From positions 87,529 to 151,528 of the forward strand of contig CAVPCD010000009.1 in assembly GCA_963702345.1 (NCBI GenBank): a stretch of DNA of 64,000 bases, read 5' to 3'. Below are positions 1,763 through 57,705 of the stretch, in pieces; the stretch's first letter is position 1; each line of letters begins with the position of its first letter. Both the position numbers and the translations under genes were made by a program. Source of the DNA: an uncultured Acidobacteriota bacterium (GTDB taxonomy: Bacteria; Acidobacteriota; Terriglobia; Terriglobales; Acidobacteriaceae). The notes under the pieces were generated by a model that worked only from the letters and a program-made list of their open reading frames with translations, ran no database searches and was not told the origin of the DNA.

Positions 1763-4700
1763 TTAGAGCGCGGCCACTTTGGATTGTTGCAGGACTTCAG
1801 CGGCGCCGCCGACCCCGTCGCGGTAAGAAACGTACCGTCCCGAAATCGCGGGGATGCGCTCACCGGGAACGACAATCCCTACCAGGTTCAGAGGGTCGGC
1901 AGCAGAAATCGTCACCAGCTCACCTGTTGGCGGAAGTTTTCGCGTAGCGCGTAAGGACTCAACTGCGACCGGCAACGCAAACTGTTCGCCAAGGAAACCG
2001 TCGACGAACTTGCCGCCACGAATTTCGCCACGTGCTTCCAGACGCCGGAAGGCCAGCTGCAGCTCTCGCCACTTCGGCAAATTGCTTTCGCGAACCAGAA
2101 GATCGCGGAAAACTACTCCATACCGTTTCAATAACATCCAGCAAACTGACTCAGCCCGGCGTTCGTGCTCGACCGCAGAATCCGCGTGCAGGATTGCCCA
2201 CCGACCGGAACTGTGCCGGGGACGAGCGGATTTACCGTTGCCTTGGCCGGAGCGGCGCTTGGGATCAATTAAAGCTCGAAGATTATCGAACCCGTCGGCT
2301 GTGACCAGCCCGGCCGCCACCAGTTCCCATAATCCGGTTTCAATCTCAGCTTTCAATTTGCCGGTGGCGCGCACGATGTCTGCAAAAAACGAAGCTCCGC
2401 GCTGGCGCAGAAGTTCGAAGACCTGATTAGCCACCGGGCTGAGTCCGTGCGCGTCAGCCAGTGAAGCATGGGGCGCCATCCAGTCTGAGTCTTCGCGCAC
2501 GAAAAATGTGATCGGAGCTACGCTTGTGGGAATCACTCGACGGCGATTCGGTTGATCTCCATTAGAAGATTCAAGCGTGGCCGGATGCGGCGAAAGCCTT
2601 CCCCATCCAACTGCACCGGTGAGGCAAAGCTGGTCGAGCCATTTGGGATCGTAATCCGCAATTCTTCTTGAGAGCACCTGTCGTTCCCATGCATTCGCGG
2701 GGACTTCAAAGCCTTCAAGTTGGCGCAACACTTCCAATGTCGCCCGTTCGCCCTGAAGCTGGGATTCTGGCGCGATGTGCTGCCAGCGCAACAGCCAGCG
2801 CATGAATTGTGCCGCGCTGACCGGTTGAATCTGCTTGCGCAGGGTCGCGACGGTCAGGCGGTGAATTCGAGCTAACAGTCGGCGATCGCACCACTCTGTT
2901 TCCTGCATGCTGGGATCGGTGAATTTTCCGCGGAGGATCGCACCGCTGGCTTCCATCCGCAGCAATGCCTTTTCGATCTCAGGTGCGGGAACGCCTAATG
3001 AACCTGCCAGTGCGTGCGGGGTCACCGGACCGATGTGCCCCATCCAGCCGGTGACCATGGCGAGGATAGCGTCGTCAGTAGAAGGAGCTAATTGCGGAAT
3101 GTCAGCGGGAGCGGTCTCGAAAACTGCATTTGGAAAAATTGCCGAGAAGGCTCTGGCTCGTTCAGCGGCAATCCAGTAAGTTTGATCACCACTCCGGGCG
3201 CTCACAGCCCGCTGAGCGTGACCCAATCGCTCGAAATAAAGTTCCCAGCCCGATGCGCCGGCGAACGTGTGGAGACAGCCGCCCGCGGCTGTCTGGTCGA
3301 GCTGCGCTCGACGATCTGCTTCAACCAGGGAGAAACCTCGTTCAGCTTCGCTGAACCGGACAGTCGAGGGCGGCTGTCCCCACATTGGCGAAGGCATGGG
3401 AATTGGCAACGCAACCAAGGTGTGCAGCACATCGTGGAGTTCATCGGCGTCGCGCAGATCTGGCCATGCTTCCGCGCGAACCTGCTCGATTGCGCCCGGA
3501 TCGAGCTTGCCGACTTCCTCCAAAACTGATTCAGGAAGAATGCGCCGCATCTCAACCGCGCGGGCGCGCCGTTCTTCTAGCGGAGCGTCATCGAGATAGG
3601 CGTACGGGTTCGCATTGAGTATCTCGTGAGAGAACTGTGACGGCACCGGCGTATCGACGGCAACACAACGAATGCTTCCATCTTCCATGCGGCGCAGCAA
3701 ATCGCGCACCCCATCGATATCCATGGCTTCGGTGAGCACGTCTTTCATTACTTCCTTCACCAAAGGATGATCGGGAATCTTGATGTCGCCCTCGATGTTT
3801 TCCTGGCAAGCGGCGACGTCGGGAAAAACCGAAGCCAGCAAATCATCGGAGCGAATGCGCTGAATTTGCGGCGGAACTTTTTTGCCGCCCTGAAAGCGAA
3901 GCAGAGCCAGAGACCGGTTTGCGTCCCAGCGCCAGCGGGTCCCGAAAACCGGCGCGGCCAGGGCGGCTTGCTCAAGCACCGACTGAACGCTATCAGCATT
4001 TAGGAAATGAAAAACATCGGCGAGGGGGAAACTGTGCTGCTCGGCTAGGGCGATGTTGAGGCCGTTGTCGGTTGCGGCCGCCTGTAATTCGAAGTTGAAA
4101 CTACGGCAGAAGCGCTTGCGAAGCGCCAGTCCCCAGGCTTTGTTGATGCGGGCGCCAAACGGGGCGTGGATGACCAACTGCATGCCGCCACCTTCATCGA
4201 AAAAGCGCTCGGCGACGATGGTGCTTTGCGTGGGGACGGCGCCAAGGACAGCACGACCTTCGAGGATGTATTGAATAGCTTGCGACGCGCCGGATTCATC
4301 CAGCCCACATTGTTCAGCCAGCCATGAAATAGTTTCGGCGACTTGGGGCATCATTGGCGAAAGTGCAACCGGCGAAATTCCCGGCAAGCGCTCACTGATT
4401 TCACGGCGCAGTTCGGCGACATGCAGCGACAGCTCTTGCGTGCGCGCTGGCGCCTCTCCCAGCCAGAAAGGAACCGTAGGAGGCGCTCCGTGCGCATCTT
4501 CCACCAGCACACGGCCTGACTTTCCTTCTACTCGGCGAATGCGCCACGAGGTGTTGCCGAGCAGCACGATGTCGCCTGCGTTGCTCTCGACCGCGAAATC
4601 TTCGTCGAGAGTTCCAACGATTCCGCCCTCAGGCTCGGCAACCACGGTAAACAATGCAGTTTCAGGAATCGCACCACCGCTGGTGATCGCAGCCAATCGG

Positions 4701-6343
4701 GCTCCGCGGCGTGCACGCAGTTTGCGATTCACCCGGTCGTGATGAAGATATGCTCCGTATCGTCCTCGGCGCGCGGCAATGCCTTCGGAAAGCATTTCAA
4801 CGATGGAGTCGAAGAGTTCACGCGAAAAATTGTGGTAGGGATAAGCCCGTTTGACCAGAGCAAACAGCTCATCTTCATCCCAGCCCGGATCGTCTTCAGA
4901 AGGACCTTGTGGCTCGGACACTCTTGTCCCAGCAGTCGATAACTCCAACGCTGCCTGGGACGCTAAACTCGATAGACTTCCATTTTCGGTTGTCGATGAC
5001 CCCTCGGTGTTCTCGGACAGGAGTGTCCGAGCCACACGACCATTGCCGCCGGGAGCATGTCTCCGAATCACGTGGCTAGTGCTGGTCGCACACGTGGCGA
5101 CGATCTGTTGCGCCATCACATCCAGCGGAGAATCGGGGATGATCAAGCGATCCAGATCGCCCTGGCGAATGGCGCGAACCAGCGAGGCGCATTCGAGCAA
5201 GTCGTCTCTGGTGGTAACAAACAACCGTCCCTTAGGTACAGCGCCGCGCCAGTGGCCTGAGCGTCCCACTCTTTGAAGGGCGACGGCAATCGCCCGCGGG
5301 GAACTGATCTGAATTACCAGATCAACCGTGCCAATATCGATTCCAAGCTCCAGTGAGGCGGTTGCGATCAAGACCTTGATCTTTCCTTCTTTCAGTTTTC
5401 TTTCGGCTTCCAGACGCAACCGGCGCGAGAGACTGCCGTGATGCGCGCCAACGTTTTCTTCGCCGATGCGCTCCGCCAGGTTATGCGCAACCCGCTCGAC
5501 AAGGCGGCGGGTGTTGACAAAGACCAAGGTCGAGCGGTGCTCCTCCGAAAGCTGCACGATGCGGTCGTAAATTTCATCCCACATCTCATTGCTGGCCACT
5601 GGGCCGAGCAAAGTTGCTGGAATTTCAACCGCGAGATCGAGCTTGCGCTTGTGGCCAATGTTGACGATTTCTGGATCGGGTCGGCCATTGCCAGCAAGAA
5701 AATGCGCAACTTCTTCGATCGGCTTCTGCGTTGCCGATAGCCCGATGCGGACGGGAGAGCGGTAGGTCAACGCTTCCAGCCGTTCCAGTGAGAGGGCTAA
5801 GTGCGCGCCGCGCTTGTCGTCAGCCACGGCGTGGATTTCGTCGACGATGACCGTCTCGACGTCGCGAAGAATGGCCCGGCTTTTTTCAGCCGTGAGCAGG
5901 ATGTAAAGAGACTCAGGCGTAGTGACCAGAATATGCGGCGGGCATTTCAGCATCGCCCGGCGTTCTGGGGCGAGCGTATCGCCGGTTCGGACGGCGGTGC
6001 GAATCTGCGGCATCAGCAGCCCGCGTTCGCCAGCCATTTGGAGAATCTCCCCGAGCGGAACTTCGAGATTCTTCTGAATGTCGTTGCCGAGGGCCTTCAG
6101 CGGCGAGATGTACAGAACTTCAGTGCGGTCGTGGAGTTCGCCGGCGAGAGCCTTGCGAACCAGGCGATCAATGCAGGCAAGGAAAGCGGCAAGAGTTTTT
6201 CCGGAGCCGGTTGGGGCGGAAATCAGCGTGGTCCGACCCGAGAGAATATGCGGCCAGCCCAGCTCCTGTGGCTCGGTAGGGGTGCCGAATTTAGCAGTAA
6301 ACCATTCGGCGACGAAAGGATGAGCCCAGGAGAGAGCAGACAT
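1763..6343 (-). CDS. lhr: Lhr-like large ATP-dependent DEAD/DEAH-box helicase (full-length, about 1500-aa class)
   Basis: 1526-aa ORF. Motif I APTGSGKTLAAF and motif II VIVDEIHAV, followed by a long DEAD/H-associated C-terminal extension. Size matches Lhr. Carries two palindromic in-frame insertions (see repeat features). Confidence 0.9.
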   Translation of the reverse strand: MSALSWAHPFVAEWFTAKFGTPTEPQELGWPHILSGRTTLISAPTGSGKTLAAFLACIDRLVRKALAGELHDRTEVLYISPLKALGNDIQKNLEVPLGEILQMAGERGLLMPQIRTAVRTGDTLAPERRAMLKCPPHILVTTPESLYILLTAEKSRAILRDVETVIVDEIHAVADDKRGAHLALSLERLEALTYRSPVRIGLSATQKPIEEVAHFLAGNGRPDPEIVNIGHKRKLDLAVEIPATLLGPVASNEMWDEIYDRIVQLSEEHRSTLVFVNTRRLVERVAHNLAERIGEENVGAHHGSLSRRLRLEAERKLKEGKIKVLIATASLELGIDIGTVDLVIQISSPRAIAVALQRVGRSGHWRGAVPKGRLFVTTRDDLLECASLVRAIRQGDLDRLIIPDSPLDVMAQQIVATCATSTSHVIRRHAPGGNGRVARTLLSENTEGSSTTENGSLSSLASQAALELSTAGTRVSEPQGPSEDDPGWDEDELFALVKRAYPYHNFSRELFDSIVEMLSEGIAARRGRYGAYLHHDRVNRKLRARRGARLAAITSGGAIPETALFTVVAEPEGGIVGTLDEDFAVESNAGDIVLLGNTSWRIRRVEGKSGRVLVEDAHGAPPTVPFWLGEAPARTQELSLHVAELRREISERLPGISPVALSPMMPQVAETISWLAEQCGLDESGASQAIQYILEGRAVLGAVPTQSTIVAERFFDEGGGMQLVIHAPFGARINKAWGLALRKRFCRSFNFELQAAATDNGLNIALAEQHSFPLADVFHFLNADSVQSVLEQAALAAPVFGTRWRWDANRSLALLRFQGGKKVPPQIQRIRSDDLLASVFPDVAACQENIEGDIKIPDHPLVKEVMKDVLTEAMDIDGVRDLLRRMEDGSIRCVAVDTPVPSQFSHEILNANPYAYLDDAPLEERRARAVEMRRILPESVLEEVGKLDPGAIEQVRAEAWPDLRDADELHDVLHTLVALPIPMPSPMWGQPPSTVRFSEAERGFSLVEADRRAQLDQTAAGGCLHTFAGASGWELYFERLGHAQRAVSARSGDQTYWIAAERARAFSAIFPNAVFETAPADIPQLAPSTDDAILAMVTGWMGHIGPVTPHALAGSLGVPAPEIEKALLRMEASGAILRGKFTDPSMQETEWCDRRLLARIHRLTVATLRKQIQPVSAAQFMRWLLRWQHIAPESQLQGERATLEVLRQLEGFEVPANAWERQVLSRRIADYDPKWLDQLCLTGAVGWGRLSPHPATLESSNGDQPNRRRVIPTSVAPITFFVREDSDWMAPHASLADAHGLSPVANQVFELLRQRGASFFADIVRATGKLKAEIETGLWELVAAGLVTADGFDNLRALIDPKRRSGQGNGKSARPRHSSGRWAILHADSAVEHERRAESVCWMLLKRYGVVFRDLLVRESNLPKWRELQLAFRRLEARGEIRGGKFVDGFLGEQFALPVAVESLRATRKLPPTGELVTISAADPLNLVGIVVPGERIPAISGRYVSYRDGVGGAAEVLQQSKVAAL
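3268..3384. repeat. REPIN/RPE-like palindromic element 1 (117 bp), in-frame inside lhr
   Basis: Inverted termini TGTGGAGACAGCCG (3268-3281) and CGGCTGTCCCCACA (3371-3384). Four consecutive stem-loops: AGACAGCCG-cccg-CGGCTGTCT at 3273-3294, GTCGAGC-tgc-GCTCGAC at 3296-3312, GTTCAGC-ttc-GCTGAAC at 3340-3356, and GGACAGTCG-aggg-CGGCTGTCC at 3358-3379. 117 bp equals 39 codons, with no stop in the lhr frame. Confidence 0.6.
4908..5036. repeat. REPIN/RPE-like palindromic element 2 (129 bp), in-frame inside lhr
   Basis: Perfect 16-bp inverted termini TGTGGCTCGGACACTC (4908-4923) and GAGTGTCCGAGCCACA (5021-5036), extendable to 22 bp with one mismatch. Each arm holds a small hairpin: GGACA-ctct-TGTCC and GGACA-ggag-TGTCC. 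129 bp equals 43 codons. Confidence 0.6.
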
Positions 6344-6521: not shown

Positions 6522-7556
6522 ATGGTTTGCACCATGCGAGTTGCAATGTTGATGGAAAAGGTTCCTCTCGGGCCTATTTTCCTATTGCGGAGAGAAGCTC
6601 AGGATTTCGATAATACGCGTAGTTTCACCGACAGCGTGTATCGATACAGCCGAGAAGATCTCATTCGAATCCTGCAGGTCAGCCCGCGGCAACTGCTTGC
6701 GTGGGAAAAAGCCGGGCTGCTTGCCAGCGCCGAAAGTTATAACTTCTTTGATCTTTTGCAGGTGAAGAAAGTTCGTGACTTGTGCGCGCGCCATGTGCGT
6801 CCCATCGAGATTCGCCAATCACTGACTGCGATGCAGCAACAGGCGGCGGGAATGGAGAATCCGCTGCTCGAGGCCAATGCTTCGACCAGTGGGCGACATC
6901 GGGTGGCTTTTCGGCATGAAGGCCGGCTCTTGGAGCCGATCGCCGGGCAATTCATGTTCGATTTTTCTCCGGGGGAAAAAGTTATCGCCAGCGTTCCTGT
7001 AACCAGAAGTTCTGCCGCCCCTCAGGAACCAGCGGGTGCCGATGTCGCGGAATTGTTTGCTCGCGGCGTTGCGCTGGAAGATGACCCGCGGAGCCAGCTG
7101 CAAGCGATTGCTGCTTATGAACGCGTTTTGCAGCTTGATCCGGAGCACGCGGCTGCGCACATAAACCTCGGCACGCTTTATTACAACCGTCAGGATTATC
7201 GCGCGGCGGAAGATCATTATCGCGAGGCTTTGCGGATTGATCCGCGCTATGCATTGGCGCACTTCGATCTTGGCAATGTGCTGGATGAAACTGGCCGTAT
7301 CACCGATGCGGTGGAAAGTTATTTGACCGCGCTGCGGTTGGCGCCTACTTATGCCGATGCTCACTATAACCTGGCGCTGGCTTACGAAAAGATGCGTGAG
7401 CCGCGCAAAGCTCTCAAGCACTGGCAGTGTTACGTGAAGCTCGATGGTACAGGTCCGTGGGCGACTCACGCACGCACTCAGATAAAGCGGATTCTGAAAA
7501 CTGATCCGCTCAGGCTGGTTGTTGGCGGAAATGCCCCGATCCAAATAGAAAGTTAG
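6522..7556 (+). CDS. MerR-type HTH domain protein with C-terminal TPR repeats
   Basis: 344-aa ORF. N-terminal YSREDLIRILQVSPRQLLAWEKAGLL resembles a MerR-family HTH. The C-terminal half has tandem TPR-like repeats (AHINLGTLYYNRQDYRAAEDHYREALRIDP, ALAHFDLGNVL, ADAHYNLALAYEKM). True start uncertain; several in-frame Met near the N-terminus. Confidence 0.6.
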   Translation: MVCTMRVAMLMEKVPLGPIFLLRREAQDFDNTRSFTDSVYRYSREDLIRILQVSPRQLLAWEKAGLLASAESYNFFDLLQVKKVRDLCARHVRPIEIRQSLTAMQQQAAGMENPLLEANASTSGRHRVAFRHEGRLLEPIAGQFMFDFSPGEKVIASVPVTRSSAAPQEPAGADVAELFARGVALEDDPRSQLQAIAAYERVLQLDPEHAAAHINLGTLYYNRQDYRAAEDHYREALRIDPRYALAHFDLGNVLDETGRITDAVESYLTALRLAPTYADAHYNLALAYEKMREPRKALKHWQCYVKLDGTGPWATHARTQIKRILKTDPLRLVVGGNAPIQIES

Positions 7557-7621
7557 TCGTACATACCTGCCTCTCTTACCCGGTGTAAAATTTCAGTCGA
7601 CGATCTCGAAAGGAATTTTCC

Positions 7622-8797
7622 ATGCCGGAAGCTGCTCTGCAGAATTTGACTGCTACCCCGCTTACGTCCCTCTCCGAAGACGAAATTCTTTTTCGGGAGA
7701 ACGTGCGTCAGTTTGCGGAAGAAAAAGTTCGTCCGCTTGCCAAAGAAATGGACGAGAAGGGCGTTTTCGACAAGTCTCTGGTCGAACAGTTCTTTCAGCT
7801 TGGTCTGATGGGAATTGAAGTTCCGGAGCAGTTCGGCGGTGCGGGAGGGAAGTTTTTTGAGGCGATCCTGGCGGTGGAAGAGCTTTCGCGCGCCGATGCC
7901 TCCGCTGGCGTGGTGGTCGATGTGCAGAACACGTTGGTGAATAATGCGCTGGTGCGCTGGGCGAATCCCGAGCAGAAGAAGAAATATTTGTCGCGCATGG
8001 CCTCAGACACCGTCGGCGCATATGCGTTGAGTGAGGCCGGATCGGGCTCAGATGCGTTCGCGCTGCAGACCAGGGCAGACTTGAAAGGCAGCGATTACGT
8101 TCTGAACGGCCGCAAGCTTTGGATCACCAACGCAAAAGAGGCGGGAATCTTTGTGCTGTTTGCAACGGTCGATCCTTCGGCCGGATATAAGGGAATTACC
8201 GCTTTCATTATTGAAAAGGAATTTCCTGGGTTCACTGTAGGGAAGAAGGAAGACAAGTTGGGCATCCGCGCTTCCTCGACCTGCGAATTGATTCTGGAAG
8301 ACTGCCGAGTTCCTAAAAGCAATGTGTTAGGCGAAGCTGGCAAGGGATACAAGATCGCCATTGAAACGTTGAACGAAGGCCGCATCGGCATTGGCGCGCA
8401 GATGCTGGGCGTCGCGCGTGGAGCGTGGGAATACGCGGCGAAGTATGCGCAAGAGCGCAAGCAATTTGGCAAGAGCATTGCTGAATTTCAGGGAATCCAA
8501 TTTCAACTGGCGCAAATGGCGACCGAGATCGAAGCGGCGCGGTTGATGGTGTATAACGCGGCCCGCATGAAAGATGCCGGTGCGCCATTTGTAAAAGAGG
8601 CCGCGATGACGAAATTGTTTTGCTCGCAGGTGGCCGAGCGAGTGACCTCGCTGGCGATCGAGATTTATGGGGGCGCCGGTTTTACGAAAGACTATCCCGT
8701 GGAGAAATACTGGCGTGACGCGAAGATTGGCAAGATTTACGAGGGCACATCGAACATGCAGTTGGCGACGATCGGTAAGCTAGTACTGGGAAAATGA
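7622..8797 (+). CDS. Acyl-CoA dehydrogenase (short/branched-chain type)
   Basis: 391-aa ORF with ACAD-typical segments: GAYALSEAGSGSDA, the RKLWITN-like region, and C-terminal IYEGTSNMQ. Confidence 0.9.
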   Translation: MPEAALQNLTATPLTSLSEDEILFRENVRQFAEEKVRPLAKEMDEKGVFDKSLVEQFFQLGLMGIEVPEQFGGAGGKFFEAILAVEELSRADASAGVVVDVQNTLVNNALVRWANPEQKKKYLSRMASDTVGAYALSEAGSGSDAFALQTRADLKGSDYVLNGRKLWITNAKEAGIFVLFATVDPSAGYKGITAFIIEKEFPGFTVGKKEDKLGIRASSTCELILEDCRVPKSNVLGEAGKGYKIAIETLNEGRIGIGAQMLGVARGAWEYAAKYAQERKQFGKSIAEFQGIQFQLAQMATEIEAARLMVYNAARMKDAGAPFVKEAAMTKLFCSQVAERVTSLAIEIYGGAGFTKDYPVEKYWRDAKIGKIYEGTSNMQLATIGKLVLGK

Positions 8798-22032: not shown

Positions 22033-22080
22033 GTTCTTCTCCCAAATTCTCACTTCAGCTTCGATCAAGCTCCGCTCGAT

Positions 22081-22107
22081 AGACAGCCGAGGGCGGCTGT
22101 CTCCACA
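22081..22107 (-). repeat. REP-like unit (same family as the arms of lhr element 1) in the ilvB/ilvM-like spacer
   Basis: The minus strand reads TGTGG-AGACAGCCG-ccct-CGGCTGTCT, nearly identical to the two arms at 3268-3294 and 3358-3384. The upstream TTCAGCTTCG is also shared with the lhr element. Confidence 0.55.
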
Positions 22108-22117
22108 CAAACCAGCC

Positions 22118-23812
22118 TCATTCTTCTTCGAACAACATCTCCGACAGCGCCGCCCCTGCCGGAACCATCGGATAAACATTTGCCTCAGGCGCACAGTCGA
22201 ACACCAGCAACTCCGGCTCCGGCGATCGTAGAAAGCGCTCTAACGCGTCTGCCGTGTCTTCAGTGACCGGATATTCGCGCATCACATCTTCCTGAACGCG
22301 CACTGCATTGATGCGATAAGCTTTCGCGATTTCCACAAAATCCGGATTGTCGCTCAAATCAGTCTCAGCATAATTTCGCTGGTAGAAAAGTTGCTGCCAT
22401 TGGCGGACCATGCCCAGATATTTGTTATCGACAATTACCATTTTGATGGGAAGATTCAGGCGGCGCACGGTGGCCAGTTCCTGAATGTTCATCTGGAAGC
22501 CGCCGTCTCCAGATACGCAGAGCACGGCCGCATCCGGTTTCGAAAGTTGAACTCCGACCGCGGCCGGCAAAGCGAAGCCCATCGAACCCAGGCCACCGGA
22601 AGTGATAAAACCACGCGGCGAGGCCGAGCGATAACGCTGCGCCGCCCACATCTGGTGCTGGCCTACGTCGGCGATGACAACGCTGTTTTGCGTAAGGCGC
22701 CCGAAAAGTTCGTCCAGAAAGCGAATAGTCGGTTGCGAGAGTCCGCGCGGATCGAGTTCCGCCCGATCTTCCCCGCAAGCTATGGCCCTCCATTCATTCC
22801 AACTCGGCAACTTCGCGCCGCGCACTTTCTCGTGGAAGGCAGGAATTGTTTTTGCGAGATCTCCAATGATTGGGAGTTCGCACGCGCGAACTCGATCCAG
22901 TTGTGCCGGATCAATTTCAAAATGTACGATTTTGGAATGGGGCGCAAAACGGGTGGGGTCGCCCGTGACCCTGTCATCCAAACGCGCGCCGAAAACCAGC
23001 AGCAGATCGTTTTCATGCAACGCCATGTTGGCGGCGCGAGTGCCGTGCATGCCGACCATGCCCAGATAATAAGGAGCCTCTGGTTCAACCGCGCCCAGTC
23101 CGTGGACTGTGGCGAAAGTAGGGATGTTGAGGTCATCCAGCAAACTTCGCAATTCCGATATGGCGCCTGAAAGTTTCGCGCCTGCCCCGATCAATGCCAC
23201 CGGACGCTCGGCCTTTTGCAGCAACGAAATCAGCTTGTCGCCAAATGCCGCTTCCAGGGCCGAATCCGACGGACGCGGCTTCGGCGTGAACTTCACCGGC
23301 CCGGCAAATTCCATTTTTGCTTTCAGAAAATCGGTCGGGATGTCTATGACTACCGGTCCCGGACGACCTTCGCGTGCCCAATAGAAAGCTTCAGCGATTA
23401 CTGAAGGGATTTCGTCGATCGTCTTCACCAGCCTGCTCCACTTTGTTAGAGAGAGAGTCAACCCGAAAACGTCGGTTTCCTGAAAAGCATCGGAACCAAT
23501 CAACGAGCTGCGGACTTGGCCGGTAATGCAAACCAGCGGAACCGAATCCATTTTTGCATCGGCGATGCCGGTGACCAGGTTTGTCGCGCCCGGGCCGCTG
23601 GTGGCAATAGCCACGCCAACTTTTCCTGTGGCGCGCGCATGGCCTTCAGCCGCAAAAACCGCGCCCTGCTCGTGACGCGTGAGCACGTGACGAATGCCGC
23701 TGCCGTCTAGCGCATCATAAAGCGGCATAATCGCGCCGCCTGGATAGCCGAAGACCAGGTCGACGCCCTCAGCCCGGAGGCACTGCAAAAATATTTCCGC
23801 GCCTCTAAGCAT
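22118..23812 (-). CDS. ilvB: Acetolactate synthase (acetohydroxyacid synthase) large subunit
   Basis: 564 aa ThDP enzyme. [14 protein letters not shown], the [10 protein letters not shown] region and the [14 protein letters not shown] ThDP motif. The start overlaps the ilvC stop by 8 nt (ATGCTTAG). Confidence 0.92.
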
Positions 23813-27715: not shown

Positions 27716-27860
27716 TTTTTCTCTTAATATTTTGTTTGATCTGTATAGTGAATACGGATTGAATTCTATAATATAAACGGTTGAATGTCGTTCTGCGTGA
27801 CGTTTGCGCGTCAATCTCGAAGAACCGATTTTCTTCGAGGCGCGAGATAGGAGTGACCTC

Positions 27861-31678: not shown

Positions 31679-31763
31679 GCGGAAGTGGTGGAATTGGCAG
31701 ACACACCATCTTGAGGGGGTGGCGCCGAAAGGCGTGGGGGTTCAAATCCCCCCTTCCGCACCA
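31679..31763 (+). tRNA. tRNA-Leu (anticodon GAG), type II with long variable arm, CCA encoded
   Basis: Acceptor GCGGAAG/CTTCCGC. Anticodon stem CCATC/GGTGG with loop TT-GAG-GG. Variable arm CGCCGAAAGGCGT. T-arm GGGGG-TTCAAAT-CCCCC. Discriminator A plus CCA. Closely resembles E. coli leuU. Confidence 0.92.
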
Positions 31764-57649: not shown

Positions 57650-57675
57650 CGAGAGCTCACGGCTTGAGGGTTTAA

Positions 57676-57705
57676 GGGGGAGCAGGTCTGCTCCCCCTTT
57701 TTTTT
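57676..57705 (+). terminator. Rho-independent terminator
   Basis: GGGGGAGCAG-gt-CTGCTCCCCC followed by TTTTTTTT, 27 nt after the stop at 57649. It lies between convergent genes, so it may also serve the minus-strand peptidase gene. Confidence 0.85.

Follow-up and report, generated by a model that had tools for sequence, protein, structure and literature searches.

The window analysed here is a stretch of 64,000 nt, numbered from its first letter, from a contig of an uncultured member of the Acidobacteriaceae (Acidobacteriota; Terriglobales). An Lhr-family helicase is encoded on its minus strand in an intact open reading frame (ORF) of 1526 amino acids (lhr, 1763..6343), and within that frame lies a palindromic element of 117 nt at 3268-3384, which is the subject of this report. 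The gene was assigned from its translation, from its homologues, the top ones being 77-91% identical and named Lhr by their sources, and from Pfam matches to DEAD (residues 23-210), Helicase_C (263-364), WH_Lhr (487-622), DEAD_assoc (703-905), WH3_Lhr (1175-1248) and WH4_Lhr (1392-1472). The element takes up residues 987-1026, between DEAD_assoc and WH3_Lhr, and reads ...PMWGQPPSTVRFSEAERGFSLVEADRRAQLDQTAAGGCLHTF... in the protein. A first-pass annotation of the window had described it as 39 codons without a stop, read through in lhr, and this holds. The open frame is not remarkable by itself, because four of the six frames of the element lack stop codons; the same is true of all six frames of the 26-nt core of its repeat unit. 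The lack of stop codons was therefore rejected as evidence. No promoter- or terminator-like signal was found inside the element, the sole terminator-like match in the scanned region lying outside it at 3245-3261, and an Rfam search with the element returned only sub-threshold matches to microRNA hairpins (28.8 bits against a threshold of 80).

The inverted termini, TGTGGAGACAGCCG at 3268-3281 and CGGCTGTCCCCACA at 3371-3384, and four stem-loops between them had been reported by the first-pass annotation, and all are present in the sequence. Both outer hairpins have stems of 9 bp: that at 3273-3294 is perfectly paired, with a loop of 4 nt, and that at 3358-3379 contains a single T.G mismatch. 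The inner hairpins, at 3296-3312 and 3340-3356, each have a stem of 7 bp and a loop of 3 nt. A repeat search returned inverted arms of 47 nt (3268-3314 and 3338-3384), 77% complementary and separated by a gap of 23 nt. In the left arm, unit 1 (3268..3294, plus strand) consists of the head TGTGG (3268-3272) and hairpin 1, AGACAGCCG-CCCG-CGGCTGTCT (3273-3294), which has an A-T closing pair; it is followed by hairpin 2, GTCGAGC-TGC-GCTCGAC (3296..3312, plus strand). In the right arm, unit 2 (3358..3384, minus strand) consists of hairpin 1, GGACAGTCG-AGGG-CGGCTGTCC (3358-3379), and the head CCACA (3380-3384), and its hairpin 2 (3340..3356, minus strand) reads GTTCAGC-TTC-GCTGAAC on the plus strand. 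Both second hairpins were read directly from the sequence. Unit 1 matches the family pattern described below exactly, and unit 2 also matches it. Between the units lies a spacer of 27 nt (3313..3339).

The core GACAGCCG-N4-CGGCTGTC occurs three times in the window, at 3274, 3359 and 22082, against an expectation of 0.03, and none of 100 shuffles reached three copies. The third copy belongs to a solo unit, an exact pattern match on the minus strand at 22064..22107, made up of a remnant of hairpin 2 (22064-22080), hairpin 1 (22081-22102) and a head (22103-22107). This unit stands between genes, on the downstream side of a gene at 22118..23812 (minus strand) and 11 nt from its stop codon; the product of that gene has the TPP_enzyme N, M and C domains of Pfam. 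The outer hairpins of the element are thus inverted copies of one unit that recurs at 22081-22107, as had been claimed. All three window units carry a GTGG head, a 9-bp stem and a 4-nt loop, and so have the GT[AG]G head of repetitive extragenic palindromic (REP) sequences. The solo copy is also extragenic, and the copy in lhr is not; since REP families with members inside genes are on record (PMC3733652), its position does not speak against membership. With its two inverted units, short spacer and single long hairpin, 3268-3384 has the form of a REPIN, that is, an inverted REP doublet. Folded as DNA it reaches -40.8 kcal/mol (z = -6.1), and folded as the mRNA strand -72.7 kcal/mol (z = -6.7). 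Nunvar reportedly dealt in 2010 with systems that pair REPs or REPINs with a REP-associated tyrosine transposase (RAYT). Such systems are now well described (PMC3116915, PMC3337134, PMC6006769).

The pattern GTGGRGACAGCCG-N4-CGGCTGTC was used to scan GTDB species-representative genomes; the genome of the window itself is not among the matches. At least 119 stretches were hit, nearly all of them in metagenome-assembled genomes (MAGs) of Acidobacteriota (Terriglobales, Acidobacteriaceae, Ca. Sulfotelmatobacter); the unit has copies outside the window, in related genomes. Among the matches listed, 156 units could be oriented by their heads, giving 17 head-out doublets, no head-in doublets and 122 singlets; the head-out doublets listed span 104-205 nt, mostly 104-130 nt. 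The window element, itself a head-out doublet, aligns end to end with 16 others, and the spacers of doublets at other loci vary in both length and sequence. These alignments, with the GTGG heads, bear out the assignment of the element to the REPIN architecture. The window carries 3 units in its 64 kb, and about 20 further units were counted in the flanks of 0.95 Mb of loci, or roughly one per 50 kb. One exact match (L041) comes from a MAG labelled Chloroflexia, amid the Acidobacteriota matches, and may reflect mis-binning or horizontal transfer.

Hairpin 2 lies outside the search pattern, yet a perfect hairpin of at least 5 bp occurs at this place in 93 of 134 units among the matches listed. 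In an alignment of 80 units, across which the GTGG head is invariant, both sides change in all 7 pairs of hairpin 2, and 78% of its cells are paired, as compared with 24-42% if the partners are shifted along. Taken over the whole structure, covariation scores 0.171, against 0.076 after shuffling, and none of 500 shuffles reaches it. Judged from these alignments, the REP unit of the family comprises a GTGG head, a 9-bp hairpin that hardly varies (GGACAGCCG-CCCT-CGGCTGTCC) and a second hairpin whose structure is kept while its sequence varies. Because a unit has two hairpins, a doublet has four.

Units of this family accompany a transposase in relatives of the window genome. At locus L014, an ORF at 747-1232 scores 84.2 bits on NCBIfam model NF047646 (REP-associated tyrosine transposase; cut-off 80 bits), also matches Pfam Y1_Tnp, and has on one side a 186-nt doublet and on the other an additional unit of the window family. 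Locus L095 encodes a protein 71% identical to this RAYT, with REPs directly on both sides. REPs thus flank a cut-off-passing RAYT in two related MAGs, which supports the REPIN/RAYT reading. A second RAYT at L060 (3703-4134), 51% identical to that of L014, adjoins a REP of a related palindrome type (3491-3517), here called G-type, GGACGGGCG...CGCCCGTC. The arrangement suggests that these genomes hold separate cognate pairs of RAYT and REP.

The same evidence bears on whether the element could be a classical miniature inverted-repeat transposable element (MITE), derived from an insertion sequence with a DDE transposase, and having terminal inverted repeats and a target-site duplication. Its 47-nt inverted arms would fit, as would the hexamer GGCGAA, which stands at 3260-3265 and again at 3387-3392, 2 nt outside either end. 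Bacterial MITEs, too, are small and non-autonomous, have inverted ends and are occasionally found in frame. However, each arm is a self-folding REP unit with a head of the GT[AG]G type, singlets make up 122 of the 156 units listed, and the units flank a Y1/HUH transposase rather than a DDE enzyme. GGCGAA is absent from the orthologous filled sites, and the repeat is therefore probably due to chance rather than to duplication of a target site. With autonomous hairpin arms and no reproducible target-site duplication, a MITE is a most improbable identity for the element.

The insertion stands in a part of Lhr that is poorly conserved in length. Mycobacterium smegmatis Lhr (7LHL) aligns with residues 860-975 and 1037-1490 of the window protein, and between these blocks lie 61 residues here but 21 in 7LHL. 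Among relatives, P0109 and P0016, for instance, also lack the insert. The 39 residues are accordingly a lineage-specific insertion, as had been proposed, and not a conserved homologous segment. Bounded by the motif DADELHDVLHTLxALP and the conserved W that follows it, the linker is hypervariable in 120 homologues (77-91% identical), its length ranging from 11 to about 70 residues. By strict peptide match, 47 of 121 proteins carry a REP-derived peptide in this linker: 19 have a doublet of the window type, here called A-type (WGQPPSAV...TAEGGCPH), 23 have the G-type peptide VGTGALARP, and the remainder have other types. A decayed motif, xTGxLARxVERSS, was recognized by eye in many of the remaining Lhr proteins. 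The linkers of 80 metagenomic Lhr loci, about half of them read by eye, include A-type doublets, A-type singlets either way round, G-type units, a third palindrome type (FARPDEGVRAY) and empty linkers; a flank alignment places a single A-type unit at the linker of L013. By sequence, then, REP-derived segments of at least three types sit in this linker in many Lhr genes of Terriglobales. G-type VGTGALARP is also seen in 6 homologues near Lhr residue 425, in a second hypervariable linker (residues ~425-450; window ~4994-5071), and A- or G-type reverse-frame peptides are seen in 4 homologues near residue 1125 (residues ~1125-1150; window ~2894-2971). The window sequence itself has no clear REP at ~4994-5071 or ~2894-2971.

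A-type doublets are polyphyletic on a neighbour-joining tree of Lhr, a rough tree from which the linker was left out. On this tree P0016 (locus L120), whose linker reads MWEHP, nests within the clade of carriers, and its insert has therefore probably been lost. L120 was considered as an ancestral empty site and rejected, secondary loss being more likely in view of the nested position and of the retained ATGTGGG. In the L120 linker this ATGTGGG, which contains the REP head, is fused straight to the 3' flank, a join compatible with near-precise excision that left the GTGG head behind or with a GTGG target that was there before. Upstream of the insert the window lhr has 97% amino acid identity to L124, which has a different, G-type insert, while the REPIN and about 70 nt downstream resemble genes of the L121 type, giving a mosaic zone at about 3190-3400. 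This pattern suggests homologous recombination around the linker.

A codon alignment of eight lhr orthologues with an A-type REPIN (from the window, L121 and L204-L209) separates the constraint on the protein from that on the DNA. Gene-wide nucleotide diversity (pi) at codon positions 1, 2 and 3 is 0.057, 0.022 and 0.405, and the lowest third-position value in any 30-codon window of the gene is 0.264. In the arms of the element pi at position 3 is 0.088 and 0.045; conservation is no stronger at the other two positions, and codon periodicity is lacking. The spacer, with pi of 0.30, 0.41 and 0.32 at the three positions, is about as diverse as the synonymous sites of the gene, and the flanks of the linker have pi of 0.30-0.39. 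The insert peptide is without constraint at the protein level, and the arms, loops included, are constrained as nucleotides. The conservation of the arms cannot be put down to a recent spread of the allele, because the spacer has diverged like synonymous sites.

These values also speak to the idea that the 39 residues form a functional module of the Lhr protein, or are an ancestral segment that is palindromic by accident. In its favour, the ORF has no interruption, and at least 19 close homologues share the segment. Against it, the spacer varies equally at all three codon positions, the arms lack periodicity, the segment is absent from M. smegmatis Lhr, P0109 and P0016, and the same DNA unit is found between genes and in all six frames of unrelated genes. 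For residues 860-1526, an AlphaFold2 model based on 31 homologues gives the insert (model residues 126-166) pLDDT below 50, between flanking blocks at 67-87 and 77-92, although with a mean pLDDT of 52.9 the model is poor overall. The low local confidence is weakly consistent with a disordered loop. A role as a protein module is very unlikely.

What has held the arms close to the family consensus may be sought at the lhr locus or in the REP population of the genome. One explanation is that selection keeps the REPIN at lhr as a functional nucleic acid, either as a strong hairpin in the mRNA, adjusting translation or decay in the stretch between the core and the C-terminal region of Lhr, or as a DNA site for RAYT, gyrase or a similar protein. 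Third-position pi of 0.045-0.088 against at least 0.264 elsewhere in the gene, the conserved loops, and the z-score of the mRNA-strand fold all agree with this. So does the hairpin-2 stem of unit 2, TTCAGCGAAGCTGAA (TTCAGC/GCTGAA), which has no occurrence in the 119 other loci listed and yet is conserved in the eight orthologues (pi 0.13); being unique to the locus, it cannot have been maintained by conversion from other copies. The comparison comprises only eight orthologues, however; the element was lost without replacement in P0016, nested in the carrier clade; other REP types stand in its place in the closest relatives; the stem mutations that are observed are uncompensated; and the element holds no terminator- or promoter-like signal. 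We regard selection for such a function as doubtful.

A second explanation is concerted evolution, in which the resident copy is overwritten by an active REP population, through gene conversion or through RAYT-mediated excision and re-insertion; this would account as well for the switches of REP type at the Lhr site. The A-T closing pair of hairpin 1 is found in 1 of 135 units elsewhere, among the matches listed, but in 2 of the 3 window units, namely unit 1 (3268-3294) and the solo unit (22081-22107), and its sharing suggests homogenisation within the window genome. The polyphyly of A-type doublets, the G-type inserts in the same linker, and the G-type REP beside the L060 RAYT, with its hint of cognate pairs, point the same way. 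Conversely, the locus-specific hairpin-2 stem is conserved without a donor copy, the genome-specific subfamily rests on two units, the neighbour-joining tree is rough, and the mosaic pattern could come from ordinary homologous recombination between strains. We hold concerted evolution to be less likely than not.

Translated copies are not confined to lhr: in related genomes, ten or more further genes have copies in frame. An ORF of at least 100 codons on each side runs through the unit at 21 of the 119 loci listed, most loci being without one. Pfam domains stand on both sides of the unit, or are split by it, in UbiD (L001), molybdopterin oxidoreductase (L027), MetH (L037, L059), acyltransferase (L050), MutS (L063), a Ser/Thr kinase (L064), an ABC ATPase (L072), GluRS (L102, L031) and a GHMP kinase (L112), and among the host genes the unit is read in all six frames. 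Doublets fall in about equal numbers into the three length classes modulo 3, so that the in-frame copies are to be seen as survivors of selection and not as designed for translation. The GluRS insertion (VWGQPPSAVRFAEGKL) is common to L031 and L102, and the MetH insertion (SAGQPxAAVPTQ) to L037 and L059. Since two MAGs share the same insertion in such cases, in-frame insertions can persist through speciation.

We conclude, with a probability of roughly 0.85 for the reading as a whole, that 3268-3384 is a translated REPIN of a Terriglobales/Acidobacteriaceae family, accommodated in a tolerant linker of Lhr and persisting as a DNA or RNA entity. The element is palindromic and non-autonomous, with two REP units in inverted orientation; it would have been copied through single-stranded DNA, the presumed agent being a REP-associated tyrosine (HUH/Y1) transposase, and would have inserted into the unconstrained linker between DEAD_assoc and the C-terminal winged-helix region. 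Its survival in lhr is probably due to a length divisible by three and to the absence of a stop codon from the frame used. The roughly 39 extra residues would be translated, most likely as a neutral loop, while the arms would be held near the family consensus by selection on the hairpins or by homogenisation with the REP population of the genome, and the coding capacity of the element would be incidental.

Several results weigh against this conclusion. A tblastn search with the L014 RAYT (E <= 1) found no RAYT gene in the 64-kb window, and the RAYT link is for that reason shown in relatives alone. Transposition is itself inferred from the architecture, and recombination rather than transposition may have brought in the allele found in the window. 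Other REP types replace the A-type element in the close relatives L124 and P0012, and the element, having been replaced there or lost in P0016, is dispensable. The mutations seen in the stems of the orthologues (e.g., in L121 and L208) are for the most part lone changes without compensation in the pairing partner, which makes strong selection for pairing at the lhr locus look unlikely. The poor structural model belongs here as well.

In kind the finding is already known: REPs inside genes for repair proteins and helicases were reported in 2013. Di Nocera et al. found intragenic GTAG/GTGG REPs in several phyla, many of them in genes for DNA repair, helicases and tRNA synthetases, and listed helicases (HrpA among them), uvr genes, polymerases and tRNA synthetases as hosts of in-frame singlets and dimers; they read codogenic REPs as tolerated insertions (PMC3733652). 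As in the codogenic GTAG/CGTC REPs of Opitutus terrae, Thauera, Thioalkalivibrio and other bacteria, the copies described here are in-frame singlets and dimers in host genes that stay intact, with repair genes, helicases and tRNA synthetases enriched in the earlier set; even the GTGG head has a parallel in O. terrae GTAG-20, where it is a mutated head (PMC3733652). In contrast to those REPs, the present family differs in sequence and phylum, several REP types occupy one Lhr linker across an order, and conservation of the arms as nucleotides was measured.

For Acidobacteria, the 2013 survey reports only Y1 transposases flanked by terminal inverted repeats (PMC3733652), and our literature search for REPs in Acidobacteria gave no paper beyond these. 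The statement of the first-pass annotation that such insertions had not been described is therefore valid for this lineage, and the phenomenon itself had been catalogued in other phyla. Similarly, in-frame palindromes are indeed known from Rickettsia but are not restricted to it, REPs doing the same in several phyla (PMC3733652). Rickettsia palindromic elements (RPEs) resemble the window element as palindromes of about 100-150 bp that lie in frame and leave the host product functional. They are known only from Rickettsia (cited in PMC3733652) and are not known to have an associated RAYT, and they have no sequence relationship to the GTGG-headed units here, which places the window element outside the RPEs.

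The known REP/REPIN-RAYT systems (Bertels and Rainey 2011, PMC3116915; Ton-Hoang/Quentin, PMC6006769) are closer. Both have short palindromes headed by GT[AG]G at the 5' end, whose inverted doublets fold into a long hairpin; both have numerous scattered copies (here across related genomes), and in both the units flank a Y1/HUH transposase gene (here in relatives). A further likeness is the position of the solo copy of the window just 3' of an ORF, between genes of the same direction. The differences are the Terriglobales host, the second, covarying hairpin, the preponderance of singlets and the intragenic copy. The literature we found describes neither a single Lhr linker occupied time and again by several REP types nor REP arms that are conserved as nucleotides inside a coding sequence.

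These observations extend REP/REPIN-RAYT systems to the Terriglobales, abundant and poorly studied soil bacteria, and add Lhr to the repair and helicase genes that carry translated REPs. In a single ORF the peptide drifts while the arms are kept as nucleic acid, which offers a clean natural test of whether REPINs are tolerated parasites or maintained elements. For annotation, peptides like WGQPPSAV, TAEGGCPH and VGTGALARP in proteins of Acidobacteriota should be treated as REP-derived segments and not as domains. As a broader and rather speculative proposal, which we consider unlikely as it stands, the intragenic REPINs of Terriglobales may be live members of the REP population, their arms being reset by RAYT-linked conversion or by selection on the hairpins, and the Lhr linker may be a long-lived landing pad in which REP types are swapped. 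If so, a population of mobile elements, rather than protein function, would dictate part of the coding sequence of Lhr, MetH, MutS, GluRS and other proteins.

Elsewhere in the window only two perfect hairpins reach a stem length of 9 bp or more, AAGGGGGAGCA-GGTC-TGCTCCCCCTT at 57674-57699 (11 bp) and CTCGAAGAA-CCGATT-TTCTTCGAG at 27816-27839 (9 bp), and neither is related to the REP family. An Rfam search of the whole window found tRNA and no other family, the sole match being a tRNA-Leu (anticodon GAG) at 31679-31763. Upstream of lhr, at 6522-8797, the window has genes for a tetratricopeptide repeat (TPR) protein and an acyl-CoA dehydrogenase. The corresponding place in L120, L121 and L123 is taken by mutL, with a PIN/MazE toxin-antitoxin pair between mutL and lhr in L121 and L123. 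Downstream of lhr, a Peptidase M23 gene is kept between the window and its relatives.

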